A stretch of DNA of 63,980 nucleotides, filler included, from Fonticula-like sp. SCN 57-25 (taxonomy: Eukaryota), in assembly GCA_001724245.1 (NCBI GenBank). It is 9 parts of 9 records of this genome, joined end to end, with 100 filler letters (N's around TTAATTAATTAA, not from the genome) between each part and the next. Parts side by side here need not be neighbours in the genome. Positions count along the whole stretch, not along the records: positions 36,155 to 43,252 come from MEDX01000395.1; 8 more parts are not named here. The stretch is one strand, 5' to 3'. The notes below the pieces were generated by a model. It saw only the letters and a list, made by a program, of their open reading frames with translations. It did no database searches and had not been told where the DNA came from. Shown here one piece after another: positions 8,116 through 43,252 of this stretch. The position numbers and the translations under genes were made by a program. Position 1 is the stretch's first letter. Each line of letters starts with the position of its first letter.

Positions 8116-10062
8116 TTACAGCTGCGAAATGGGCACGTTGGCCGTCCACTTGAGGGTCCACGCCGGCGCCAGCCCTTCCTTTACAAACTCCTCCTGCTGC
8201 TTCCTGACGCGATCCATGATCCCCTCGATCGCGTCGACCTCCAAACCACCCTCAAACGCCTGGGCTATCTTGACCGACAGCGACGCCAACCCCGGCCCTG
8301 TCAGGCACGCCTCTTGAAGGGGATAATCGGAAGGATAATATTCGTCATCATCGTCAGCAAGGGTATGCCTGCAGTAGTAATCTAGGTAATCTGAGATTAA
8401 GAAATCTTCGCCTTCGTCGTCCGTCCCCTCGGAGCGTTCCTCATCGATGAACGGTATCATGTACCACGACGGCTCCACCGGGGTAAAGTCGGGGTACTCT
8501 CGCAGGAAGCGGCGCACTTGGCAAGCGCCCCACGACAGCACGCCCAGCTGGTCCGACCACGCATGCTTGTTGTCGAGCATGTACGCGCGTAAAAGTAACA
8601 TGCAAACTGTATCATAGTCTGATGAAATGTCTGCCCTTCTATCCATGGAAGCCAGGTCGCCAACGGTCAGCGAGCGAAGCGCTTCACCAGAAATGTCATT
8701 GACGACACTGGACAGAGAAATGAGGCGCCAGTCTTGAAGGAGAATGTGCAGCATGCTGGACGAAACGGCAGAGAGGTCCGCGCCGTCCGCAAGCAACTTG
8801 TCCAACGAGGCCACACGCTCAGTCTCATCCGCGGTGGCGCGTCCAAGGGCGACTTTCGAACGAAGGGAGGGTTCGTAGAGAAACACCTTGCCGGCGCGGC
8901 CTACTGCAAGCTGGCCACTGGGGGGGTGGAATGTGCCGTACGTGTCGTACTGAATAGAGCGTATGTTAGGACCGAAACAGCAACAAGTATAGGGCAGAAA
9001 CAGCAACAAGCAAAAGGCCGACACAAAGTTGAATTTCCATACACCTCTCCTCTATCGTACAGAGTAGCCAACGCGAAGACGGCCGTCCAACTTGTGTGTT
9101 TCGGGCGACCACACCTGCACGGATCCGTTAAAGGTCACTGTCACGATGTACTTTTCATCCGCGCTGAACGCGCATGACTTTATGCCATCCCTCAAAAGTG
9201 ACGTGTCGGGGTAACAGCAAAGCTTTCCCACGCGTACTGTGCCTTGGCTCACGTCAATGTCAGCCGCATGTGCCCTCCAACCGCACACGGCCAAAGCGAC
9301 TCGACCAGAGCTAGATATCGCTGCATCGTCCGCCTACCAACCATGGTGAGCTGGGCGAACTTTTCAGAAAAGCGCACGTTTGGAAGGTCAGGGTCGCAGA
9401 GAGATGTGGCTGCGGACTTTTCGCCCGGCTCCATGTTCAACGCCATGACAGAATTGCCGACAACGAGCAAACGTCCGTCCGACGAGAACTGAACGGAAGA
9501 GGGATAATCGTTGATGTCAAATAGTTGCTCTTCCTTGATGAGGGCGTAGTCGCCGTCGGCTGATACTCTGAGCAAGCAGTACCAGGCGACCCTCTTGTTG
9601 CCTACAGCCACCGCCAATGTGTCGCCGGACGGATGGAACGCACACCCTTGAAGCTACCGAGCACATAGTGAGGGACAAGTACGTCATAACCGAGCAACAC
9701 ACCCCATTTTTGCAGGTGAATACCGTGCGGTGCGACCTCCCGCCATCAGGAGTGAAATCCGCGATGATAACCTGGTGGACAGGTTTCTTGAAATAGGATC
9801 TCGTCGTAACGGCGACCCGAGTTCCGTTGGGTGCCCACGCAACACCGCCCGCCTCAGTGTTTTTCGGAAGCGGGATGTCATAGACCACTTCCGCAGTACT
9901 CGCATCCCAGACCCGCACGATATGCGCGCACTCCCAACCGCAGGCCAAATACCGACCGTTCGGGCTGAACGCGAACCGACGCACAATGTCACCATTTCCA
10001 GACACATCGCCAATTGGCAGCGCCCGCTCGTCATTCCAAGCGGGGGGAGCGGCACGCGACAT
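8116..10062 (-). CDS. WD40-repeat plus tandem SAM-like domain protein, divergent member of the family at 36256-43252; spliced
   Basis: WD motifs FAFSPNGRYLA...VRVWD, VAWAPNG, CAFSADEKYIVT...VQVW. The C-terminus (DISGEALRSLTVGD...LLLRAY; VLSW; LTGPGLASLS...AWTLKW) aligns by eye with the cluster copies (DVDGVSLTLLNVGD...LLLRGY; VLSW; WHGAALCSLS...TWVSKW). Confidence 0.75.
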
Positions 10063-10489
10063 TATGCGGCCTTTACAATGCGGTTGTCGATTGTGGTACT
10101 GTCCCTACTGTTTTCTGTGGTCCTGAATCCTGATCGTTTGGCGCGTCCCCTCCAAACAAAAACAGTCATTCTATTGGATAGATCTGACCAATGAGAATGG
10201 TGTTATGACAGTCATCGTATTGGTAGGTTTGAAACCTATTGTCAATGACCCACTCTTTCGTCGAGTAGGCGCTTTATTTACGCAGGCCATAGGCTTGGTT
10301 CGTCTTCCCTGTCAGAATATTTGTATTCACGTAGACCACGCTAACCACTTGGATACATTACCCCTTCCGTTTCACTTTCCCGCGCACCATCATCGCGCCA
10401 TCGTGCCTTTCATCATCTCACTTTTGGTTCATTTATTACTTTGTTTTTTTCATCTGTTCTGTCAAACATATTCCTCCCGTTCGCCGCTC

Positions 10490-17900: not shown

Positions 17901-20900
17901 CATTGGCCGGATGTGATCGAGGTGCGTCGCGTAGTGGTAAATGTCCTTGGACGTCTGACTCTTGAGCAAGTTCTGCAGTTTGCGCGTCAGCTGGCCGACC
18001 TCCATCTTGTACAGGTCCGAGCGCATCTGCGCCGTGAGCTCGCCGGCCGACGTCTTGGAGAGCTCCTGCGACTGCTCCTCCTCCATCACAATCTCGTTCG
18101 ACGCAATGTCGTCGTAGATGGCGCCCAGGTACGCCTCCTCGAGGTCGCCGCCGTTGTTGATGCCGCGGTTGTTGCGCAAAAACTGCGGCTTGGTCATCTT
18201 GTTCTTGATCTGCGCGCTGTGCAGGTCCGTATTGAGCATGATGACGGAGAAGGCCAGCGTGTAGGCAGTGTCGGCGTTGGCAAACACCTTGGGGTTGTTT
18301 TCGCAGTAGCGGTCCGCATACTTTTCCATCAGGCGGTCAATCTTTTGTGACTCGCCGGGAAGACGGAAGGCCTGCAGAAAGTGGCGCAGCGCAGCGGTGA
18401 AGGCCATGTCAGTGAAGGCCATCTGGTCGACAAAGGCGTGCATCACGCGGATGTTTTCCGCGTCGCCCTCACCGAGGTACTCGCCAATCGCCGCCTTGTT
18501 CAGGCTCGGCGTCTTGAGCAGGAACGTCGCAACGTCCTCGGGGGTCGTCCCGAGGAACTTTGACTCTTGCAAAAAGGCGACGCCCTTCTTGGGCTTTTCA
18601 TTAAACTTTTCCACGCCTTGGCGCAGCAGCTGCGGGCATGTGTGAGTGACAGGAAAGGGCAAGGGAAGGGCAAGAACAATAACACAAACACGAGCAATTC
18701 AATCTACCATCTACCAATACCAGCCATGTATCTTTCTCGTACCAGCTTGCGCGACTTCATCTCCTCAAACTGCTCGGGGCTGTCGACGCGCACAGCCGAC
18801 GGGTCCGGCGCGGCGGCCGAGACCGTCACCTTGCCGAGCGGGTTCTTGTCGAGGATGACTGGCTGGTCGTTGGGCGGCGTGCCGGCGGTCGAGCGCTCGT
18901 CGACGCTCGCGTTGCCGATGGTGGCGGACGACGAGTTACCGGCGTCCTCCTTGTTTGACCACTCGAGCAGCGAGTTGATGATGGCCACGGCGCACTGCAG
19001 CGACCGCAACCGGAACTTTTTCGCGCTCGCCGCGTCCATGAGGTCGAGCGCCTTTGCCGAGCTCGCCGCGGTCGCCACCTCGTTCACCATCGTCTCGTAG
19101 AGGTCGTCCGCGTTCACGTCGCAGTCATAGTTGATGTAAATGTCAATGAGCGCCTGCGCGTTGCTGCACACCTTGGCGAGGCCCTGCAGCACCATGATGC
19201 GCTGCGCAGCCGACGTGCTCGGCTGGTGCAGGATGCGCAGAAAGGTGTCCTTGAACAGAATCTAGCAACAGCCGTCAGCACACAGGAGCTACTAAAAAAG
19301 GCGCGCACCTGGATCTCGCGCTTGAGCGGCGCCTTAAAGTGCGTCAGGAGCGTCAAAAAGATGGACAGCGTGAGCTCAAAGATGGTGTTGTGCGCCGAAA
19401 TGGCGTTCTTGGACAGGTTCAGGCACAGCTCCTTGCGAATAAGGTTCACAAAGTTTTCGTTGCTGCGGAACACCGGGCCGGGGTGGCTCAGCACCGACAG
19501 CAGCAGCTCGAGCGCCAGCATGCGGCCACGCGTCTGAAAATTGTCACAGTCAGCTCACCGTACGGCACAGCAAGTACGCACCTCATTGTTGGACGAGTCG
19601 GCCGAGGCGGCGGCGTCGACATCGTCGGGCGCCTTTGAGAGCACGCAGAGGCGCTTGAAGACGAGGTAGACGTCCTTGCGGAGGATGCGGCCGTAGGCGG
19701 CCACCGTCGGGTCGTACGGGTTCACCCAGTCGCTGTTCTTGGCGGCGGGCGCGTGGTGGGCGTCGCCGTCGGCGGCAGAGCTCGTGAACGACGCGTCCTC
19801 GAGGCGGCGCTTCTCCTCGGCCTCAATGCGCTCAAGGTTGGCCTAAAACAGGGTGAGTGGACGCAAAGCGGGAAAGAATGGGCGCACCATTTTGCACGCC
19901 TTGGAGCACACGGGGTCCTTGGTCTGCGAGCAGTAGTTGTCCGCGCGCTTGTGGCACACGACGCAAAAGCCGTACTTGCCGGCTTCCGCGGCGCCGTCAC
20001 CTTCGGCCTGCTCAGTGCCATTGGCCGCAGCAGTCTGTGTCGTCTTGGCCTCCTCGCTAAAGCGCCAACATGTGAGAAAAAAGATGGAAAGTATCACACG
20101 CGAGGAACGCACGATTCCTGGCGAAGCCGCTGGTCGGCCGCGCGGTTAACAACCGAGACGGCATAGCGCTCCATCCGCTGGAAGACGAGGTTGACAATTT
20201 GCGTCAGGCTCGCCTTGGCCGTCACCTGGTTAACGACGTTCTTGCTAAAGAGAAAGATATTGAAGCACGTCTGGACCGCGCGCAGCAGCGAAACATCGTG
20301 GACCTCGCACGAAGGCGCGGTGATGATGGTCAGCAGCGCCTTCACAACCTGCACAAACCATGAGCCGCAAGTAAGAGTCAAATAACACGCACCTGGAGCT
20401 GAACATTGGGATCGTCCTTGGCGACGGTGAATGCGTTGGCAACAAGCTCGACAATAGAGTCGATCAGCAGCTTGCCCGTCGTAGGGTCCACCAGGGAGCC
20501 CTGGAGGAACCTGAGAGGATGCCAAGAGTCAGCAGCGGCCAATCGAGACATCGCAGCACGTACCGATGCGCGACGAGCTTCTGAACGCAGTCGAGCGCCG
20601 TCTCTACGATCTTTGGGTTGGGGTTCTGCAGCGCAAGCTTGAAAGGGGGCCAGTACTGGTCAGCATTGATGGCAGTCGAAGAGGCAAGCGATGCGGGCGT
20701 CGCCGACTTGATCTGCGCCTCTGGCGCGCCCTGGGGCGCCTGACCAGCAAGCGCCGCAGACTGGCCTACGACGACGGCCGCGGGTGGCGCAGCTACAGGC
20801 GCCTCTGACGTGACCTGGAGGAGATCCCAGATCTGTGTCAAAGAAAAGCCACGGGAAAAGAACACTGCGCACCTTTTCAGTCTTGAGACGGTCGAGAGCT

Positions 20901-23700: not shown

Positions 23701-25142
23701 ATGTACCACATATTCAGAGGACGCGAGCAGGGCATCTTGTCGCCGGTAGTCGTCCGGCGCGTGGAGATGACGCGCGGGCTATTTTCTTTAGAGTTGAGCG
23801 TTACACACCGCTTCGAGCGGGTGCATCGACACGGCATCAGCGCGCTCGCCATGGAGTCGCTCGAGCAGCGCTAGTGCGTTCCCTTGCCTGCCCACGCGCG
23901 ATTTCCTGCACATATTTGTGCTAATTAATGGCAACCAACGTGTGTTTTAGTTTGTTATCGGGCGGGAGTGATGGGCGCGTCTGCTTGCACGATGTTGAAG
24001 ACGGGGCGGTTCGCAGCGGGATGACGACGGTGGCGCTGAAGGGCCAGAGCCGCGGCGCCAACACGCACACGGCCCTCGTGAGCGCCGTGTCTTGGTTCCC
24101 CTGGGAGAACTCGCTGTTTATAACGTCTTCATACGACGGTTCTATTCGCGTGTGGGATCCGCACGCGATGCAGGCACGCGATTTGCATTCGCTGCGTTTT
24201 GCTGACGGCATCACAAACAGAGTCACGGCCAAGTGCCCTTTTTCCACAAGATCTTTTCGCACGCAATATCACCAATTGCCATGTCGCACACTCTCGTGGC
24301 CGGTGCGCTTCTTTTTTTAAATGCTTTTTTAAACTAACATTTCTGCAGCCGCGACCGAGGACACGCACGTCCGCCTGTGTGACCTTCGCGTCGGCGCCTC
24401 CTGCCACTCCCTCACCGGCCATCACTCGAACGGCGTCCTCTCCGTGCAGTGGTCCCCGCGCTTTGAACACGTGCTTGCCTCTGGCGGCTCCGACGGCCGC
24501 GTCCTCTTCTGGGACGTCCGCAAGAGCTCTGGCCCACTCACGTCCCTGAACCAGCACAATGTCTCTGAGGACGGCCGCTCCTTTGAGCGCCGCACGCAGA
24601 CGGGCGGCACCGCGCACAATGACGCCGTGCTTGGTCTTCAATTTTCGTCCGACGGCGTGCACCTCGTCTCGGCCGGCATGGACAACGCGCTGCGCCTCTG
24701 GGACGCACAGCGCGGGCGAAACATGCTTGTCAACTACGGGCCGGTCGCCGCGCCCGCCGCCGCCAACGTCGGCCGCGGCGCTGTCCAGTTTGCAGTGTCG
24801 CGCGAGACAGACCTGCCGCTCATTTTTTTCCCGACGAGCAGCACGCGCGGCGTCGCAGTGTTTGACATGTGCACCGGCGAGCGCGTCCACGCTCTCAAAG
24901 GGCACGCGGGCAAGGCGGATTGCGTCATCCTAAGGCCGGGCGCGCCGGTACGTGGCCGTTTTATCTCTTGCGCATGGCTTACGTGGACTGTAGGAGGCGT
25001 TCACGGCGGGGCGGAGCGGGCAGATTCTCATGTGGGCGCCCGAGCAGAAGCGGCAGGTGCGCATTTATTGATTGTTCTATTTGCGCTGACGAGGGCGCAG
25101 ACGGTCGTACCGGACGCGTGGAGCGACGACGACGACGCGTGA
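23701..25142 (+). CDS. ERCC8: Cockayne syndrome A / ERCC8 (Rad28/Ckn1) WD40 protein, spliced
   Basis: MYHIFRGREQG...RRVEMTRGLFSLEL...ERVHRHGISAL...EQRY|LLSGGSDG; VSWFPWENSLFITSSYD; VQWSPRFEHVLASGGSDG; NMLVNYG; ends DAWSDDDDA as in CSA. Confidence 0.9.
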
Positions 25143-33421: not shown

Positions 33422-34497
33422 TCAGTCAATTGGGCACTGACGATAATAAAGTAGATGCTGGCCCTGAGTCAGCCTACAATGATCGGTCATAGCCGGCCGT
33501 ACCGAAGGCAATAGACGAGGTGGGCGATGGAATGGCCCAGCTGGAGGAGCGACATCTTGCCGCCGTGCAGCGCATCCAGGCGCAGAAACCAATTCGCCAA
33601 GGACGGCTTGAGATTGTCCCTCGTTGGCGGAAAGTGTGCGAGTACTAGGCGCGCGACGGCGAGAGCTTCGGCGGGAGCTACATCCGGGAACGCATCCCAC
33701 GCGCCTTCCTCCTCTGACGCTATGGCCCATGGTCGGCGGGAATCCCTCAGTGCGGAAGCGCTGAAGGACCGGACGTTCCGCCGCCTTTTTTGCCCGCACG
33801 AACTCGTCAAAGGACTCGTCATTGGCCTCAATGCCTGTGAGAGGCGAAAACGACCAGCCCGAGCCCGGCAAAGCACGCCACAGCCTGTACGCTGCTTTCA
33901 GAGTACCGTACTTGTTGATGACCGAGCTCGAGGTAATGGCGGTGCCACCCGCGGCCTCCTGGACCCTCAAAGCGATGAGGGTAAGTTCGGTACCCCTAAA
34001 GGTGCCGTTGTCGGTCTGCTTGCCGGCGCGCTTCTGCACGAGCATCTCATCGAGCATCGCGCGCTCCATCGCAGGTGTCCGCATCAAACGGACACCCCCT
34101 CTTCTTCGCCCCCGTCTGGGGCACCCAATCGGTCTCGCCATCTGTTCTGGTCACCTACAGGCACCCATACTGGGATGTGCGTCCCATCCAACGCTCCTAG
34201 ACAGTGACGAAAGGAGCTGTATTTCCTTTGATGCAAAACGGGCGCGAGAGTGTACTCGCCCCCAGGCGAGGGCTGCGGCAGCGCAACGACCTGGGGGTAG
34301 AGCTGCAAAAGCAACCCAAGCACGAGGTCAAAAGCAGTAAACAAAGTGCGCGTGCTGCGATGAAGCTGACCACTCAGTAACGGAAATGTGACACCATGCC
34401 CGGCCACCATCAGGAAAATCCCGAGGGCTTCAAGCAGCGTGACCCCATTGGGCATGATGAGGCAGTTATCGCAAACATCCAGCTTATCCTTGGCCAT
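33422..34497 (-). mobile_element. Degenerate PIF/Harbinger transposon: N-terminal DDE transposase fragment (34084-34497) abutting a Myb/SANT-like ORF (33422-34084)
   Basis: LEALGIFL...HRSTRT...FRHCLGALDGTHIPVWVP...RWRDR contains the first catalytic Asp of Harbinger transposases. LDEMLVQKRAGKQTDNGTF...INKYGTLKAAYRLW...SGWSF...EANDESFDEF...RFRTEGFP is Myb_DNA-bind_3-like. No terminal inverted repeats identified. Confidence 0.8.
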
Positions 34498-35565
34498 CCA
34501 GTCGATGCACTAGCGCACAAAAAACGCGAGCGTCGCACGACGGCGGTTGAGAGAAAGCTGACGTGAGCTCATATTATGGTCGTGTACGAGTGTACGGGAC
34601 GACGATTACGCAATTGTAAACTGAATGCAAAAACTCCCGCCAAACCCTCCCGTCACTACTGTCCCGCCCTGGCCCCGCCAAAAATGATTATGACCTGTAT
34701 CTTTTTCGTTGTTTTCTCTTTTGTTGTCTCTTTAGATATACATGCGACTCATGCCTTTTCAGTGTGCTCTTTCATTACATCTTTTTTTCCCCTCTCTCTG
34801 CCCGCAATACATGAATATTGTATGTACTAGTGTTCATCGAATACTATTTGCACCATGTACATGCTGCGGCCCTCTTCGTATGAGAGTCAAAAGCGACCCC
34901 TCTGCCGTCCATGCCACTTTGGTGACGGTATCTGATAATGGTCATTCCTTGTGCGGACCTCGGTGATGCCGCGCGCGAAGGCGATCACGAGCGGCGCATC
35001 GGCGGCATTTAGCGCGCGAGCGCGGCGATGGCGTCACGGATGATGCGGATCATCTCGCGATGCCGGCTACGGTCAACGTAACGTATCAAAGATAATGTCA
35101 TTTGTGCAAGAAGAACAACGAGCGGTGCTTGTACGAATATGTAAGCGCGGGTGGGCGCTCGCATGCTCATATAGAGGCGATGATGGCGATCGACGCTGCG
35201 TCAGAATCCCCAGGCGGCGCTGCCGGCATAATAAGTGGGCATCACAGAGCGCGGATCACCGTCAGCTCACCACAATCGCCTTAAATACAATGGCAAATAG
35301 GAGACCGTTTGACCACATAACGACGCCCTTCAATTTCGACCGACATCACCATGCCTTTCGCAGGACTTCTCGCCCCGTTCTCGCCGTTCTCGGGTCGATG
35401 ACTCATGACTCGAGTCGATCAATCACGTGACCAATGTTACACAACTCGTGGCCGACGTTGCTGACAGCTATAGTGACAGGTCTCTCTGTATCTGCCGCGC
35501 GCAAGTGGGCAGCAGTTGAAGTTGTAGGAAAGGGAAGCGAAAAAAGTGGTGGTCGCAAATTCGCA

Positions 35566-36054
35566 ATGGCGCCTCACCTGGTCAAGAAGGCGACTATAGA
35601 GCCGCACACGAGCGACGTACGACATTCTTTGTTTTTGATGTGCTGCTGGTCTGATGCTGATCGTGTTTTTAGGTGAACGGGTGTGCGATTTCGCCCGACG
35701 GCACTTTGGTGGCAACTGGTAGTGATGACGGTTCACTCTGCATCACCAATATTGCCACGCAGGCAAACGTGTACACGGTGCAGTGTCGTCACGATGTACG
35801 AACCCGTTTTGCTCTCTTTTGTTCTGACACCACATCAAGTTGAATGATATCGCGTGGTCGCCCGACGGGACGCGTCTCGTCGCCGTTGCATGGGGTGGCA
35901 TTGTCAATGAAGTCACCATCAACAATACGCACTCGATCGTGTACAAGATCAACAATGTGACAGGGCGGTGCGGCACGATCGATCTTGGAGTTTGCAGTTT
36001 GCAATCTGTCAGATACCGATTGGATCGGCAAGCGACCGTCATGACCATGCAAGT
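35566..36054 (+). CDS. N-terminal WD40 part of another WD40-SAM family member (truncated at contig end)
   Basis: MAPHLVKKATI...|VNGCAISPDGTLVATG...LCITNIA...|LNDIAWSPDG...HSIVYKI has the same exon layout and motifs as the copies starting at 38357 and 41066. Confidence 0.7.
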
Positions 36055-36255
36055 NNNNNNNNNNNNNNNNNNNNNNNNNNNNNNNNNNNNNNNNNNNNTT
36101 AATTAATTAANNNNNNNNNNNNNNNNNNNNNNNNNNNNNNNNNNNNNNNNNNNNCAAAATTTCACTTCAACACGTGTGGATACAGTACGCAATGGGCAAG
36201 ATAAACATATATGTCATAAGTATATTTACACCCCTAAACAAATCAAGAAGAAAGA

Positions 36256-38357
36256 CTAGACAGCTTGGTTGTCGATCGTACTGGCACCGCTCCACTTTGA
36301 CACCCACGTGGCCTTATCACCATCTGTTTCACTTCTCATTTTACGCACTAATCCGATAAACTTTACCGCATCTGCCGCCTTGAGCGCTCCTTTTGATGCT
36401 TCAATGACACGTGGCGGCGAAAGAGAACATAGGGCAGCACCATGCCACTCAGCATCGGACAAACATCCATATGGCTCACCAAGTGTTTTGATCCAGTTTG
36501 CAGTTTGCGCTTCGTCCCATGATGGGACACTTCCACTTGGCGGGGCGAATGTACTGTCATCACTAAGCTTGTAATGCGCAATATAACCACGAAGTAAAAG
36601 AGCAGAGGCATCGGGAAATGACACATTATTCTCCGTGACGTCACCCACATTGAGCAAGGTAAGGGAAACGCCATCAACATCTTTCAAATCAAATTGCAGT
36701 TTGCTCATGCCAATGTCACACAGCCACTCTTTAAAGGCGGCACCGCGAAGGTCCTCCAATCCAGAAACAGATAGGCAATCTGTCAAGCTGTCAATTGTCT
36801 GCGTGCAGACATTGATTATGCCAAGTAGTTCACTATGGCGCTCCGTCATAATACTGAAATGACGCAATTCGTCAGTTTGCAGTTGGCCTAACTCATTCTT
36901 CTCGCCCGCCACTGTACACATGTTAGTTATACAACCACGTGACCTAAATGCGCACATTTGGCCTCGAGGTCGGCAATGGAGCGGTTCAGTTCCTGTACAC
37001 GTGTCAATTGCTGACGTAATCCGCTGTCTGCCTTTTCAAGGAATGCCCCAGTGCGTTTGATTTCTTCCGTCGCCTTTGCCAACCGTTTCCGGACGCATAC
37101 TTGGGCGGGCACGGCCACTTGAGAGGCAGGTGCAATATAAGGGTTAGTTTGCCAAAAATCAACTTGACTGGGCTTGTATAGACCGAGCGCAAGAGTGCCG
37201 GATGGAGCATGATAAGAAAAAGAAAACGCCTTGACAAGAATGAGTGAGATGAATAGAAAAAAAGAGACGCACATCTCCACATTTGTAGTTTGCAGTTTGC
37301 ACTCCGTCAGAGGTGCGCCAAATGCGGAGTGATTTGTCGGTTGACGCGGTGACGACGAGCGACTCATCGCCGAGAAAGGCGCCACCAGAGACTGGCTTGG
37401 TATGTCTCTTGAGTGTCACGTGAGGAGTGGATGACCACGTGGAGCCTGCTGATGGAACATTCCAGATGGAAGCAGTTCCATCGGCACTTGTGGCCAATAG
37501 CATGCGGCCAGAGGGGCTGAAGCAAAGAGATTTAATCTAGTCTCAGGTGAGTAGGAGAACATCAAAAAGCATATCGCACCCATTGAGAATGGTGCTTGTT
37601 ACTTAATAACTGTACCCACTTGCCTTTGGTCAATCCATAAAAGTACATTTCACCAGCATGACAGCTCACGGCAAGAAGATTCCCGTCGGGAGAAAAGGCT
37701 AGATGATTCACCTGCATAATCAATTATGAATAATCGAAGATAACACATTATTCGTAAACGCACAAAACCAGGTAATCCGGTGAATATCTCAATAACTGCA
37801 TAATTGTTGGACGGGTCCAAGAGTGTCACGGCATTATCTTCTCCACCGATGGCAAGGATCCCGCGAGGACAGAGCGCGCAACCTTTCAACTAGACAAGGG
37901 ATGAGCAAAGAAAGCGCGGCGCGCATGATGCATACAGCCTTGTCGATCTTGAACACGGTCGAGTGCACTTTGTTGTCTGACATGTCTGTAACTTTGATGA
38001 CGTTACCGCCGCCTGTTACGACGAAGAGACTCTTCCCGTCGGGCAACCACGCGACACCACGCACCTGTCATGATGACATGATGTTGGTCAGAACGAAAGA
38101 CATCGATCATGCGCGTACAAAACGATCATTTATTGTAGCGGTCACCTTTGTACGCGCTGCAATATTGGTGATGCGGAGTGAGCTTCCAAAACTTGCAGTT
38201 GCCACGAAAGTGCCGTCGGGGGACAACACACACACTTCCACCTGAAACACAAGCTGAATCAGACCAGCGAGCGCGAGGAGAACCGGCGACGTACTGGTTC
38301 GTCGCGCATCTTAATGGTCGCCCCTTTAACGAATAGCTGTGCTGTCGTATCAGCCAT
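36256..38357 (-). CDS. WD40 x7 - coiled coil - SAM - SAM protein, tandem copy A; 8 exons
   Basis: Spliced reading frame traced intact: MADTTAQL...|VEVCVLSPDG|VRGVAWLPDG|LKGCALCPRG|VNHLAFSPDG|IKSLCFSPSG...GAFLGD...|AFSFSYH...coiled coil...EWLCDIGMSKL...DGVSLTLL...SWDEAQTANWIKTLG...GAALCSL. Confidence 0.8.
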
Positions 38358-38972
38358 TTTGCCGCTTACTTTCAGGTGACGGCCGACAGAGTCACCGAGT
38401 CAGCCGCGCGCGCCAACAGCGGATATTTACAGTCCAATCACGTGAGTGCTGCCGCCGCGATTCGCCCCTGATCACCCCCCGCCGCCCCCGGCGATCTGCC
38501 GGCGATGACTGGTCGACGTTGGTGGGCGCCACGAAGCGGCGCTCAAGCGCGAATACTATTGTGACATGCTCTGATATTTGTTTTCTCTGACGATTCAGAT
38601 ACGGTGTTTTTAACGAGAAAAGAAGCGCGGCATCCACACAAGCCCATCGCTTTGTCGTCCTCGACAAGACGACAACATCCGGCGCCACCGCCGGTCATCG
38701 GATCCTGGACGCGCCGCGTTCCGCGGCATTCGCCAATGCTCCTTGACGAATGTCGATGGACAGCACGAGCGGTTGATATGCGTCTATAATGCGCTCGTGG
38801 GCTCGGCCCACGGGATCCCGAAGCGAGTCGCTGATTCGGCCGATTGCCCCTGCAGTGTGGCGATGCCAGATGAAAGTGTGGCAACTGTCAAGCTTTCACA
38901 TCATAGTTTTGGCGTTATTTTACATATCTCCACTAAATATGGTCAACGTAATACATTATTATATAAAAGAGC

Positions 38973-41066
38973 CTAGGGACCTTGGGTGTCGTTCGTACTT
39001 GCGCCGCTCCACTTTGAGACCCACGCGGCCTTATCACCGTCCGTTTCATTCCTTATTTGACGAACAAGTCCAATTAATTTTACCGCGTCTGGCGCCTTGA
39101 GTGCGCCCTCGCTTGCTTCAATGACACGTGGCGGCGACAGCGAGCACAAAGCGGCACCATGCCAGCCAGCAGAGATTAAACATTCAAAACGAGTTCCAAG
39201 TGTCTTGATCCAGTTTGCAGTTTGCTCTTCGTCCCATGACAGCACGCTGCCACGTGGTGGTGAAAAAGCTTTGTCATCACTAAGCTTGTAATGCGCAATG
39301 TAGCCGCGCAGCTGAAGGGCAGCGGCATCGGAGAATGACACACCATTGTCCATGACGTCACCCACATTGAGCATCATTAGGGAAACACCTTCAGTGTCCT
39401 TCAGTTCAGTTTGCAGTTTGCTCAGGCCAATGTCACAAAGCCATTCCTTGAAGGGGTCACCGCAAAGATCCTCCAATCCGGACGCGGAAAGAGAGCGCGT
39501 CAAGCTGTCAATTGTCTGCGAACAAAACTGAATGATGCCATGCAGCGAATCACGGCGCTCCATCAGCCGAATACACTCACGAGACTCGTCAGTTTGCAGT
39601 TCCTCTAATTCCTTTTTCTCGCTCGCCACTAGACACAGTTAGTTTAAAACCACGTGATCTCAATTGCGTACATTTGGCCTCGAGGTCGGCAATCGAGCGC
39701 TTCAGTTCCATTTCACGTGATACCTGCTTACGCAAACCATCATCGGTCTTTTCAATTGATGCTTCTATGCCCTTGACTTGTACCTGGGCCGCTACCAACC
39801 GCTCGCGTAAACACACATGGTCAAGAAGGCCACTTTGATATGATGCAAACTGGGAATCAAGTTGCCAAATTTCAACCTCACGGTTCATCTTGACAATTGT
39901 TATGTTTCCAGAGGCAGCATGATACGACAACGAAATCGCCTAATATCAAAGGTGAGAAACAGAATATGAATGCCAAAAGGACGCACAAATAGACATGGGT
40001 AGGTTGCAATTTGCACTCCATCAAAGGTGCGCCACATGCGGATCGATTTACCAATAGAACAGGTGATGACGTGTGAATCGTCGCCGAGAAAGGCGCCGCC
40101 GGTGACTTGACTCGAGTGTCCCTTGAGTGTCATGTGAGGAGTGGATGACCACGTGGAGCCTGCTGATGGAACATTCCAGATGGAAGCAGTTCCATCGGCA
40201 CTTGTGGCCAATAGCATGTGGCCAGAGGGGCTGAAGCAGAGAGAAAAGATCTATACGCAATTAGCAGTGAAAATATAAAGACAAGTATCATACGTGATCA
40301 GAGTGATGCTTATTATATGATACTTGCGCCCACTTGCCATTGGTCAGTCCATAAATGTACATGTGGCCATCCCAACATCCCGCGGCGAACATAGTCCCGT
40401 CGCGAGAAAAGGCAAAGCAGTACACCTGCAGTACCAAGGTGAGCTCCAGCAAGAAATCATTCATAGCACACCTTATTAGCCAAATTTCTAAATTTCACTA
40501 TAATCGAATAGCTCTTTGATGGATTTAAGAGCGTCACGGATCGGTTCGCTCCACTAACGGCAAGGATCCCGCGAGGGCTGAACGCGCATTTTTCCAACTG
40601 GAAGAAGGTTGAGCCAAGTTGGCGCGCTGCGCGCAAATATGATGCGTACGGGCGTGCTGACCTTGTAAACTGTCGAACGCGCATTGTTGTTTGCAACTCG
40701 GCATTGGATGACACTGCCATCGTAGGTCACGACGATAAGATGCGTTCCGTCGGGTGACCACGCGACACCACCCACCTTTCGTGGCGGTCAGAACAATCGA
40801 GGAGAAACAGTCGCGTACGGTACCGCTGCCACAGTCCACAGTGCGCACATCTGCCATCGTGGCCTGCGTGACAATATCGTTGATGTAGAGGAAATTTGAC
40901 GGTCGGCAACCGCGAGATGCCACCAAGGTGCGGTCGGGGGAAAGTGCACACCCTTCCAACTGGATGCAGCATCAGATTACCAGCGCATCTCAAGCGGGAG
41001 AGAACAACTACGCACCCCCCCCATTTGTGTTGTTTTAGTCGCCGTTTTGACCAGTTGCTGCGCCAT
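38973..41066 (-). CDS. WD40 - coiled coil - SAM - SAM protein, tandem copy B
   Basis: MAQQLVKTAT...|LEGCALSPDR...|VGGVAWSPDG...; C-terminal ORF 38973-39629 is highly similar to copies A and C. Confidence 0.8.
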
Positions 41067-41333
41067 TGCGTCTACTGCGCTTCCCGCTTTCCCTCCAAGA
41101 TGACCGCGCAGCTCAACACCCAGTCAGCAGATGACAGGGCAATTAGTCACGTGATCTGATGCTTTCAGTACAATCTTGCCAGCTGCTGCCAATGGCTTGA
41201 ATACATTAAAACGTCGGACAGTATCATGTAAATATTTCAATAATAAGATGCGCGTTCAACATGTGTGGATACTGTGTAAATAAAAATAGCCAAGACACTC
41301 CTATTAATACAATCAATAATTCGTAGATCTTTT

Positions 41334-43252
41334 CTAGGCAGCTTGGTTGTCGATCGTACTGGCACCACTCCACTTTGACACCCACGTGGCCTTATCACCA
41401 TCTGTTTCGCTTCTCATTATACGTACTAATCCGATAAACTTTACCGCATCAGCAGCATTAAGTTTTCCTTTCGATGCTTCAATGACACGTGGTGGCGAAA
41501 GAGAACATAGGGCAGGGCCATGCCAGCCAGAAGTGAAAAGACAAGAAAAAGGAGCATCAAGTGAAACAATCCAGTTTGCAGTTTGCTTAATGTCCCATGA
41601 CAGCACACTATCACGTGGCGGTGAAAAAGCTCTGTCTTCACCCAGCTTAAAGTGCGCAATGTAGCCGCGCAATAAAAGAGCAGCAGCATCATTAAATGAC
41701 ACACCATATTCCATGACGTCACCCACATTCAGCATTGTCAAGGAAACACCATCAGTGTCCTTCAGTTCAGTTTGCAGTTTGCTCATTCCAATATCACAAA
41801 GCCATTCCATAAAAGCATCGCCGCAAAGATTCTCCAATCCGGAAACAGCAAGACAGTCTGTCAAGCTGTCAAGTGTCTTTGTGCAGTCATTGATAATGCC
41901 AAGCAGTTCACTATGGCGCTTCATTTGAATCCAATATTCACGTGACTCTTCAGTTTGCATTTCTTCGAGATCCCTTTTCATGCTCGTCCACACAAACACA
42001 ACCGTCTCACTCAAATAGTTAAATTTGGCCTCAAAGTCGGCAATCGAGCGCTTCACCTCATTTTCACGTGATATTTGCTCACGTAAGTCATCATCTGGCT
42101 CTTCAAGTGATGCTTCAACATCCTTGATTTCTGCCTGCGCCGCCTCCAGTCGCTTGCGTACGCATGAGGCGGACGAGTCCGCTTGAGGGGCAGATGCAAT
42201 CTGAGGATCAGTTTGCCACTTTTCGATATGACCGTCGTGCGTGACAACTGCAATGCTCGTAGACGCAGCATGATAGGACAATAGCCGCACCTGTATGATA
42301 TAGAAATGAGATGCGCAATATTAACAGAAAAAGGAGTGACACACCGATCCAGTATCGTAGTTTGCAGTTTGCACTCCGTCAGAGGTGCGCCAAACGCGGA
42401 GGGTCTTATCTTCGGATCCAGTCACGACGTGCGACTCATCGCCCAGAAAAGCGCCTCCTCTGATTGGTGACGTGTGCCCCCTGAGTGTCACGTGAGGAGT
42501 GGATGGCCACGTGGCATCTAATGGAACATTCCATATGGAAGCAGTGTTGTCAGTACATGTGGCCAACAGCATTCGGCCAGAGGGACTGAAGCAGATCGAG
42601 TTGATCTAACAAAAATAGTTTGCTATGATTAGTTATGACAGTATCAAAGAGACAAGTGCCGTACAAAATAAGAATGACATTGGAAATCTGCTACTTGTGC
42701 CCACTGTGCCCACGTGCCTTTGACCAGGCCAAAAATGTACATGTGGCCATTCAAACATCCGGCAGCAAGAAGATTCCCGTCAGGGGAAAAGGCAAAAGAG
42801 TGCACCTGCGTATTTCAAGGTGAACACCAAGTAAGAAATCATTCATGAGCGTACAACATGAGCCAAATTAGTGAATTTCTTTACGACGGAAAATCTGGAT
42901 GGGTTTAAGAGTATCACTGTACGATTTCCACTGACCGCAAGGATGTTGCGAGAACTGATCGCGCAACTAGTCACCTAGACAAGAGGTGAGCAAAGAAGGG
43001 GCGAAAGCATAAGGCATACGTCAGTTTTGAGCCTGTGCACAATCGCGTCCTTATAGTGTTGGAGGACTACGAAAATATTTCCGTCCCGCGCCAAGGCGAC
43101 AAGTAGCTGTCCGTCCGGCGACCAAGCGGCGCTCCGCATCTTTCGTGATGTCAGGACAAAAGAGGAGATCAGGTTGCGTACAAAACTACTCAAATCCACA
43201 GTGTGCGTTTCTGCCTTCGTGGCAACATCGATGACGTGGAGGACATCTGGCG
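41334..43252 (-). CDS. WD40 - coiled coil - SAM - SAM protein, tandem copy C (5'-truncated)
   Basis: MRSAAWSPDG..., MLLATCTDNTASIWNVP...GGAFLGDESHVVTGSEDKTLRVW; C-terminal ORF 41334-42290 ends WVSKWSGASTIDNQAA. Confidence 0.8.

Follow-up and report, generated by a model that had tools for sequence, protein, structure and literature searches.

What kind of protein joins a variable WD40 propeller to a constant C-terminal module, very probably made of two SAM domains, and why should its gene be repeated head to tail? This question is raised by positions 36155-43252 (MEDX01000395.1) of a window of 63,980 bases from Fonticula-like sp. SCN 57-25 (GCA_001724245.1), which was analysed here as nine stretches of about 7.1 kb each, joined by linkers of the form N44-TTAATTAATTAA-N44. 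Between 36256 and 43252 the minus strand contains three head-to-tail gene copies, here called A, B and C, of which two are complete and one is truncated at the contig end. Large, fast-diversifying receptor families are a hallmark of immune and self/non-self systems. To our knowledge, very few such families are known outside animals, plants and filamentous fungi, and those that we know of are almost all built on NOD-like receptor (NLR)-type NTPases, leucine-rich repeats or E3-ligase scaffolds. The family to which A, B and C belong looks like an undescribed kind of recognition repertoire, and we put the probability that it is a germline-encoded repertoire of cytosolic, oligomeric recognition proteins at roughly 55%. 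Here, we describe the genes, their domains, the family and its variation, and weigh this reading against its alternatives.

Genes A, B and C are real, intact, spliced genes (Table 1). Their models were built from stop-to-stop frames, frame-preserving GT..AG pairs and the agreement of the three paralogues; the three coding sequences contain no stops, and all 19 introns are GT..AG introns of 42-59 nucleotides (nt) that begin with GT(A/G)(C/T)G and mostly have a CTNAC-like branch motif 10-20 nt ahead of the AG. As direct repeats, the units are 71-84% identical in nucleotide sequence, with up to 93% over 91 nt, and start 2714-2717 and 2351-2380 bases apart, so that repeats, spacing and splice models agree on the three head-to-tail paralogues that an original prediction, made from the sequence alone, had seen at this locus. 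Introns 1-6 all have phase 0 and interrupt each blade at the same place, after residue R1-2 and just before strand a begins (e.g., 38242-38294, 38065-38118 and 37890-37935), and exons 2-5 consequently encode one blade apiece. Of the 55 junctions that could be tested in relatives, 46 have AG and GT at the identical codon, and the introns there measure 43-92 nt. The last exon of gene B is found as database protein P0122. The donor of the last intron of gene C is lost (GT to TT), leaving an in-frame read-through of 45 nt that adds 15 residues to the coiled-coil-like stretch; the same read-through is present in database protein P0138 (96% identical). Over 1920 nt gene C shares 98.4% identity with a metagenome contig, L002, which provides the absent 5' end and also contains the 3' end of a fourth copy, upstream of the gene C equivalent.

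The N-terminal 320 residues of the proteins form a canonical WD40 propeller of seven blades, whose strand-a motifs lie at family columns 18, 61, 103, 145, 189, 237 and 277. Blades 1-4 of gene A are encoded one per exon, blades 5-6 lie together in exon 6 and blade 7 lies in exon 7. The exon-6 frames of all three genes match PF00400 with expectation values (E) of 3e-13 to 3e-16, above the 27-bit cut-off, and a PDB comparison of exon 6 gives 350 distinct sequences at E<=1e-6, including WDR5 and Apaf-1. Blades within one protein have only the generic WD40 motif in common, and a repeat search finds repeats between genes only. The propeller had been described as variable with about seven blades; both points stand, except that the variability is not uniform, since blades 5-6 are 64-75% identical among A, B and C and blades 1-4 only 38-50%. 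The propeller is followed by a linker of about 105 residues that appears to be coiled-coil-like, judged from its heptad register score (0.46-0.52, vs 0.23-0.30 elsewhere) and from weak matches to coiled-coil families such as ATG16, Golgin_A5 and Nuf2. The last exons, which encode the C-terminal module, are 72-73% identical among the three genes. The protein stops 25 residues past the second SAM unit in a Trp-rich tail (ETDGDKATWVSKWSG..., with …DKATWVSKWSG…), in which W202 (last-exon numbering, P0001) is invariant in 148 relatives and W206 nearly so. The expectation of a well-conserved C-terminus with a WVSKW tail is hereby borne out, and the order WD40, coiled coil, SAM, SAM is supported by profile and Pfam evidence and by a public predicted model of a relative.

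Evidence for the two SAM units, SAM1 and SAM2, which lie in the final 160 residues, comes mostly from comparisons in which relatives were pooled. A single window protein compared with the PDB has the SAM domain of SARM1 as its sole match (E 0.63-1.2), a profile of 10 relatives matches liprin-beta-1 at E 0.0046 with an alignment that spans both units, and in a profile of 43 relatives SAM1 matches the second SAM domain of liprin-beta-1 (whole-sequence E 2.6e-6, domain E 1.8e-4) and SAM2 the polyhomeotic SAM domain (E 0.004 over 69 positions, and 0.042). Weaker matches of the 43-relative profile are the SAM domains of SARM1 (0.13-0.23), sphingomyelin synthase 1 (0.19) and Scm (0.67), and the same profile also matches three non-SAM chains at E 0.05-0.13. 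When 148 relatives were scanned singly at E<=1, Pfam returned SAM_1 for 64, SAM_2 for 16 and SAM_3 for 4 (best 1.8e-5), and SAM_1 matches in relatives fall within the SAM1 region. Compared with one another, SAM1 and SAM2 have a weak in-register likeness (hhalign P 0.0021, probability 13%), and no similarity when shallow alignments are used. Structural comparison was possible through the ESM Atlas model of a 51% identical relative, P0014, for which five of ten structural rows were SAM clusters with the whole protein as query (template-modelling score, TM, 0.29-0.33) and all ten neighbours of residues 118-200, the SAM2 part, were SAM proteins that aligned over 67-74 residues at a TM by query of 0.63-0.66, rows that rank under the search tool's own bar. 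These SAM2 neighbours include polyhomeotic homologues, SAMD7, SAMD11, STE50, L3MBTL1 and CNKSR3. On this model and the polyhomeotic match we take SAM2 as a SAM fold, and the profile matches indicate that SAM1 very probably is one too.

Other domains are conspicuously few. Pfam scans of A, B, C and 148 relatives found no NACHT, other NTPase, TIR, effector or death domain, in keeping with the earlier statement that the window genes show no NACHT, TIR or enzyme domain, and an NCBIfam scan gave zero matches. The first exon of gene A codes for 21 residues only, which leaves no space for a NACHT domain upstream of the propeller. The N-termini of A and B, read by eye, contain no hydrophobic stretch, and nothing suggests secreted effectors.

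The family is lineage-restricted and has been duplicated many times, largely as head-to-tail arrays. A profile search of 5.8 billion proteins, for relatives of 63-784 residues, yielded at least 154 clusters (90% identity) at E<=1e-3 from the 8000 best word-sharing candidates, the only ones scored; these clusters are pooled over metagenomes and one species or several, and are not copies per genome. The best 120 of the 154 all have E <1e-86 and are 56-76% identical to the last exon of gene A, pairwise identity in the core group peaks at 65-75%, and in a 157-tip tree A, B and C lie within a clade of 15 tips with support 0.89. A HMMER search of 1.84 billion representatives at 50% identity gave 38 at E<=1e-3. 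Searching 5.8 billion clustered proteins for longer relatives gave six, all from metagenome assemblies, and no fused family forms of 785-2240 residues were found. All family proteins come from ENA, JGI and Logan, and their sole name is 'hypothetical protein'. They are unspliced last-exon frames, which indicates that eukaryotic annotation was never applied to the host genomes. In JGI/ENA metagenome contigs, a scan located 27 loci, 22 in one assembly and the others in a second, with head-to-tail arrays of four copies (L008), three copies (L014) and two copies (L002, L005 and L025); the L014 array is bordered by ordinary, unrelated genes. The family is thus expanded, as had been predicted.

Identical or nearly identical pieces of the target stretch occur in contigs of bioreactor, aquatic and fungus metagenome runs. 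One run, X1, contains 830 contig pieces with at least 90% identity to the stretch, of which 203 fit two places, and its summed word depth of 400-770 in the SAM1 and blade-5 bins, vs 11-17 in unique spacers, is a hint only and not a copy number. At L018 (876-1611, on a low-coverage contig) the last exon is divided between two frames at about base 1371; the locus is a pseudogene with a frameshift, or else the contig was misassembled. Searches of viral contigs and of prokaryote genomes gave no family relatives, and a viral or prokaryotic origin was dropped on this ground.

Where does the family vary? All exons of the window genes and of the 27 loci were aligned to the family hidden Markov model (HMM), and in every blade entropy peaks at three residues: those on either side of the conserved hydrophobic residue with which strand a begins, and the one directly before the Asp in the b-c turn. 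Top-face positions, of which 20 were measured, reach 2.3-3.5 bits, vs a per-blade mean of about 1.1-1.6 and 0.4-1.4 for the residue they flank. These positions, R1-2, R1 and D-1, are general top-face contact residues of WD40 propellers, as defined from structures by Wu et al. (2012; PMC3419727), and the same positions are under positive selection in the WD repeats of fungal HET-E and HET-D, according to PMC1805685. Columns at these hotspots contain 6-12 different residues among 13-21 genes and are rich in Arg (13.0% vs 2.8%), Tyr (8.3% vs 2.9%) and Glu (7.5% vs 2.0%), with His and Asn also enriched.

The proportions of non-synonymous (pN) and synonymous (pS) differences were compared in 91 pairs of 14 non-redundant propellers, with the three columns before each exon junction excluded as a guard against intron read-through. 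Mean pN is 0.686 at R1 and 0.68 at D-1, vs 0.289 +/- 0.05 (maximum 0.415) in 300 random sets of 15 columns, 0.22 at the conserved residue between R1-2 and R1, and 0.15 and 0.30 in the A-B and C-D bottom loops, for which junction columns were still included. Amino-acid change is in excess at the contact positions: in 85 of the 91 pairs hotspot pN is above the pS measured elsewhere in the propeller, as it is in all six of six independent pairs in which each gene was used once (Poisson P 4.8e-6, 0.015, 0.019, 0.0095, 0.18 and 0.0053), and the pair with the least divergence (pS 0.10) has changed at 11 of 15 hotspot residues vs 33 of 248 elsewhere, a hotspot change of 16.8 vs a neutral expectation of 4.0 (about fourfold). 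In the propeller outside the hotspots pN/pS amounts to 0.62, and in the SAM regions to about 0.33-0.35. The ratio of non-synonymous to synonymous substitution rates (dN/dS, Nei-Gojobori) among A, B and C is 0.49-0.68 in blades 1-4, 0.33-0.65 in blades 5-6, 0.32-0.43 in the coiled-coil stretch and 0.16-0.39 in the SAM regions. The diversification noted in the original prediction is real, and entropy and pN place it on the ligand-binding face of the propeller; positive selection at the hotspots is likely rather than proven.

This diversity is between paralogues and not visibly between alleles. The only allele pair, gene C and L002, has 15 synonymous and 12 non-synonymous differences, of which one of the 12 falls at a hotspot, and since this pair lacks hotspot hypervariability it argues against an allorecognition-type polymorphism. 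Neighbouring copies may nevertheless exchange sequence: a 91-nt tract in exon 6 of A and B (37449-37539 vs 40163-40253) is 93% identical, dS of this exon is 0.25 vs about 0.74 elsewhere, and the tract looks like local gene conversion between neighbours. The closest paralogue also shifts by exon, as exon 3 of L008:6742 is 90% identical to that of L008:2 and its exon 4 at most 76% identical to any copy; in this incomplete sample of paralogues, such shifts are hints of an exchange of single exons, and thus blades, among paralogues. Repeat-induced point mutation (RIP) was considered as a diversifying engine and rejected, with TA/AT at 0.52-0.57 and (CA+TG)/(AC+GT) at 1.32-1.41, like the remaining window.

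A link to ubiquitin ligases comes from two of the 148 relatives. P0036 and P0037, which are 24-28% identical, contain a U-box (E 1e-7 and 2.2e-9, respectively) that lies 25-60 residues past the aligned SAM-SAM-Trp-tail and matches plant PUB12 (E 5.9e-8) and CHIP (E 0.004) in the PDB. By Pfam there is no U-box in A, B, C or a distant family member elsewhere in the window. The original prediction had set WDSUB1 apart as a different architecture, which is correct for the window genes as far as the missing U-box is concerned, but too simple for the family at large, given these two relatives with a U-box after the same module. According to Marin (2010; PMC3087547), WDSUB1 consists of seven WD40 repeats, SAM_2 and a U-box and occurs in animals only, and a WDSUB1 relative of Monosiga has two SAM domains and a U-box without WD40. 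Because the U-box in P0036 and P0037 follows the same SAM-SAM-Trp-tail, the window family would descend from U-box ligases and have lost the U-box; it is probably a U-box-less, coiled-coil-bearing and massively duplicated offshoot of a WDSUB1-like SAM-SAM-U-box group.

How could such proteins work? As recognition proteins, they would have a variable head, the top face of the propeller and the surface by which WD40 domains usually bind peptides and proteins, with which each paralogue would bind a different and probably fast-evolving ligand. The constant body under purifying selection, comprising the coiled-coil-like linker, SAM-SAM and the tail, would join the proteins as homo- or hetero-oligomers, and would couple the copies to a common partner, plausibly, by descent, a U-box-bearing relative. 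Any role in defence is our inference, and a U-box ligase as the partner is conjecture. A more elaborate version, speculative and in our opinion rather improbable, would be an innate system free of NTPases, in which dozens to hundreds of germline WD40 receptors, their top faces diversified by selection and possibly by a trade of blade exons at the phase-0 introns, which fall exactly between two contact residues, respond to a parasite or viral protein by assembling, through coiled coil and SAM-SAM, into a polymer that engages a U-box relative or another effector.

Several results weigh against a repertoire of oligomeric recognition proteins. The C-terminal module of a window protein taken singly matches zero Pfam families at E<=1, SAM_1 reaches E<=0.01 in just two of 49 relatives with 20 bits, under the Pfam cut-off of 23 bits, and profiles of the close subfamily, which are too shallow, give E 0.061 for SAM1 and no SAM match for SAM2. 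The structural support derives from a medium-quality model (predicted local distance difference test, pLDDT, 0.64) of a relative that is 51% identical. The pN comparison covers only 14 propellers, 11 of them from low-coverage metagenome contigs, with exon edges set by the HMM and not by transcripts. In a parsimony count on the tree, hotspot dN/dS is 0.93 when synonymous changes in the same codons are used (binomial P 0.72) and exceeds 1, at 1.83, only if the synonymous rate is taken from the remaining domain; this count is blurred by saturation and multi-step codon paths, and nearly every branch has changed at the hotspots. Regarding the partner, a phmmer search with the U-box parts of P0036 and P0037 through every frame of the window and of the 27 loci found no U-box.

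The alternatives differ in how far they depart from this reading. Closest to it are ubiquitin-ligase adaptors, which is a more specific version of the same idea with parallels in the expanded F-box, BTB and TRIM families: having lost its U-box, each copy would present a different substrate and co-assemble through SAM and coiled coil with a U-box relative, such a relative being the most economical partner for an adaptor set. The genuine U-box directly past the shared SAM-SAM-tail in P0036 and P0037 argues for it, as does the pairing of a variable, substrate-type face with a constant joining module; so do the WDSUB1 and Monosiga two-SAM and U-box architectures described in PMC3087547. Given that neither the window nor the 27 loci contain a U-box, and that the two U-box relatives are so distantly related and seen from last exons, we hold adaptors to be a tentative possibility. 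Alternatively, the proteins could sense pathogens or non-self, as the original prediction had it, and signal when a ligand induces their SAM domains to polymerise, in the manner of SARM1 and without an NTPase or enzyme domain. Several polyhomeotic, SAMD7/11 and L3MBTL-type SAM domains are polymerisers. It is in this neighbourhood that the SAM2 model falls, and the SARM1 SAM domain is among the weak profile matches; the family is furthermore large and tandemly arrayed, and its variable contact positions are those reported in PMC1805685 for the fungal HET-E and HET-D WD repeats. The absence of an effector or death domain speaks against such sensors, and so do the gene C and L002 pair, which is unlike allorecognition loci in its changes, and the blades, which are neither internally repeated nor homogenised as in HNWD genes, and we consider polymerising sensors doubtful.

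Further removed are two explanations that deny the proteins a recognition function altogether. The family might be a decaying or neutrally drifting set of repeats whose variable positions are simply unconstrained surface residues, and the same-codon tree ratio of 0.93 is compatible with neutrality; the lost splice donor of gene C and the last exon of L018 in two frames would fit as well. Base composition also enters here. The family genes have a GC content of 0.48-0.51 and a GC content at third codon positions (GC3) of 0.47-0.54, which is below the 0.82-0.83 of topoisomerase II and Sec7, confirming that they are less GC-rich than housekeeping genes, and at the low end of a range in which eight other frames have 0.52-0.76. 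Against decay, the frames are open, the residues between the hotspots are strongly conserved, exposed bottom loops are conserved nonetheless, pN/pS stays at 0.33-0.35 for the SAM regions and at 0.62 for the propeller outside its hotspots, and hotspot change in the least diverged pair is far above the neutral expectation; because frames, splice sites and SAM regions are conserved, pure decay is unlikely, indeed highly so. The low GC3 could equally be combined with the copy number into a picture of cargo of a mobile or selfish element, transposon-borne or of a drive type. Beyond composition, the sole support for this is a Myb_DNA-bind_3 frame about 1.5 kb from a family fragment in the neighbouring stretch. 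The array has no inverted or terminal repeats by a repeat search, its copies are strictly head-to-tail with short spacers, the L014 array sits among ordinary genes, there is no RIP-like signature, and the searches of viral contigs and prokaryote genomes gave no relatives, which together make mobile cargo a very remote prospect. 

If the family is indeed a repertoire of recognition proteins, it would represent a new architecture for such repertoires and a natural library of propeller binding surfaces, and would offer a handle on the function of WDSUB1-type proteins, which is barely known. The family also shows that annotated protein databases can lack such families altogether, their hosts being known from metagenomes only.

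Table 1. Positions of the family genes, their exons and domains, and of further family members, in window coordinates.
Feature	Position	Strand	Description	Basis
Gene A	36256..38357	-	complete, 8 exons, 588 aa; introns 43-54 nt	
Gene A exons 1-4	38357-38295, 38241-38119, 38064-37936, 37889-37764	-		splice model
Gene A exons 5-8	37711-37580, 37536-37273, 37229-36956, 36911-36256	-		splice model
Gene A WD40 propeller	37101..38357	-	seven blades, aa 1-322	Pfam WD40, PDB matches, strand-a motifs
Gene A coiled-coil-like linker	36745..37100	-	aa 323-426; split by intron 7 (36912-36955)	heptad score
Gene A SAM1 (very probable)	36532..36744	-	aa 427-497, motif F.EWLCDIG...DG.SL..LNV	family profile vs PDB; SAM_1 matches in relatives
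Gene A SAM2 (taken as SAM)	36334..36531	-	aa 498-563, motif SV.SWD..QTANWI..LG...W.GAALCSL	family profile; public model of a relative
Gene A tail	36259..36333	-	Trp-rich	alignments of 10, 43 and 148 relatives
Gene B	38973..41066	-	complete, 8 exons, 587 aa	splice model as for gene A
Gene B exons 1-4	41066-41016, 40959-40819, 40775-40650, 40597-40472	-		splice model
Gene B exons 5-8	40425-40294, 40250-39987, 39939-39672, 39628-38973	-		splice model
Gene B SAM1 (very probable)	39249..39461	-		
Gene B SAM2 (taken as SAM)	39051..39248	-		
Gene C	41334..43252 (model 43250-41334)	-	5' end lost at stretch end; 555 aa visible	
Gene C exons	43250-43182, 43139-43020, 42974-42855, 42805-42665, 42605-42345, 42290-41334	-		splice model
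Gene C SAM1 (very probable)	41610..41822	-		
Gene C SAM2 (taken as SAM)	41412..41609	-		
Further family member	35673..36001	+	blades 1-2; truncated at stretch end	tblastn E 1.4e-9 and 6e-9
Distant family member	8116..10104	-	fewer introns	WD40 blades, short linker, SAM-SAM-Trp-tail

Relatives had been announced on two other stretches of the window, and both are present. The fragment at 35673-36001 matches the family HMM at columns 18-60 and 62-113. The member at 8116-10104 is distant and below detection by tblastn at E<=1e-3 (best 0.12-0.7); its last exon (P0004), which clusters with P0035 in the tree, has 23-27% identity across the whole C-terminal module and keeps the invariant Trp and Gly, and its upstream frames match Pfam WD40. 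In this distant member the coiled-coil-like linker is nearly missing, and SAM2 (within 8116-9051) contains an insert of about 50 highly acidic, Tyr-rich residues (…DEERSEGTDDEGEDF…DDDDEYYPSDY…) between the first helix region and the core. Two further candidates were discarded, a tblastn match at 19172-19333, which is due to chance and lies opposite a Sec7-type gene, and 24021-24743, which is a generic WD40 protein. The Myb/SANT-like Myb_DNA-bind_3 frame mentioned above (33422-34509, minus strand, E 1.6e-5), some 1.5 kb away from 35673-36001, adjoins a frame that reads DDE-nuclease-like by eye and gave no Pfam match. Myb_DNA-bind_3 domains occur in Harbinger-type transposons, and 33422-34509 may be a remnant of one.

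The window DNA is of eukaryotic, nuclear type in character. Its other stretches encode topoisomerase II (833 bits with the human and 825 bits with the yeast protein), a midasin-like AAA protein, a BIG/Sec7 exchange factor, ZPR1 and a sugar transporter; no RNA genes were found in it. Within the array, the spacer between A and B (38358-38972) exceeds that between B and C (41067-41333) by about 350 nt in length and also in GC content (0.546 over 38001-39000), and no recognisable feature was found in it; the regions upstream of A, B and C show no clear common promoter motif. An 18-nt motif, GTATCCACAC(A/G)TGTTGAA, with CACGTG or CACATG, lies 62-90 nt 3' of the stop codons of gene A (36166-36183, minus strand), gene C (41255-41272, minus strand) and the fourth copy in L002 (170-187). 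It is expected by chance 0.09 times per window, and was found neither after gene B nor in the other 26 loci.

How does this family compare with known systems? Among the closest is WDSUB1, which, according to PMC3087547, has an N-terminal propeller of seven WD40 repeats followed by SAM as in the window genes, and whose Monosiga counterpart with two SAM domains and a U-box matches the layout of P0036 and P0037. These likenesses are of architecture and description, not of sequence alignment, WDSUB1 did not come up among the PDB matches, and the differences are considerable: WDSUB1 has one SAM domain and a U-box, whereas the window genes have two SAM units, a coiled-coil-like linker of about 100 residues and no U-box, and WDSUB1 is described as a single, often lost, animal-only gene, whereas the window family comprises at least 154 diverged clusters and forms tandem arrays. 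With the fungal HNWD/NWD genes (HET-E and HET-D) the family has in common that it is multigene, that the WD40 propeller is the variable recognition part and, by comparison with PMC1805685, that paired hypervariable positions flank a conserved residue on the top face, in the d-a loop and the b-c turn. In contrast to them, it has no NACHT/NTPase and no HET or other death domain. HNWD repeats are near-identical and in concerted evolution, while the blades here are unlike one another; diversity resides between whole-gene paralogues and not in reshuffled repeats, and there is no RIP signature.

The SAM part is reminiscent of other proteins. Liprin-alpha and -beta have a coiled coil ahead of three SAM domains. 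Liprin-beta-1 is the best match of solved structure, its second SAM domain and the start of its third aligning in tandem to SAM1 and SAM2; it differs in having three SAM domains instead of two and in lacking the N-terminal WD40 propeller, the likeness is limited to SAM core motifs, and there is no evidence from the alignments that liprins and the window family are orthologous. SARM1 (ARM-SAM-SAM-TIR) likewise has tandem SAM domains beside a sensing domain and gives weak SAM matches (E 0.13-1.2), but its sensor is ARM and its output TIR, whereas the window family has WD40 and no TIR and its protein ends in a tail of 25 residues; the structural neighbours of SAM2, moreover, are of the polyhomeotic and not of the SARM1 type. 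Searches of open-access papers and preprints turned up neither a WD40/coiled-coil/SAM-SAM family nor an expanded WDSUB1-like family. The individual parts of these proteins, and diversification on the top face of the propeller, are known; their combination, its scale and the host lineage are new.

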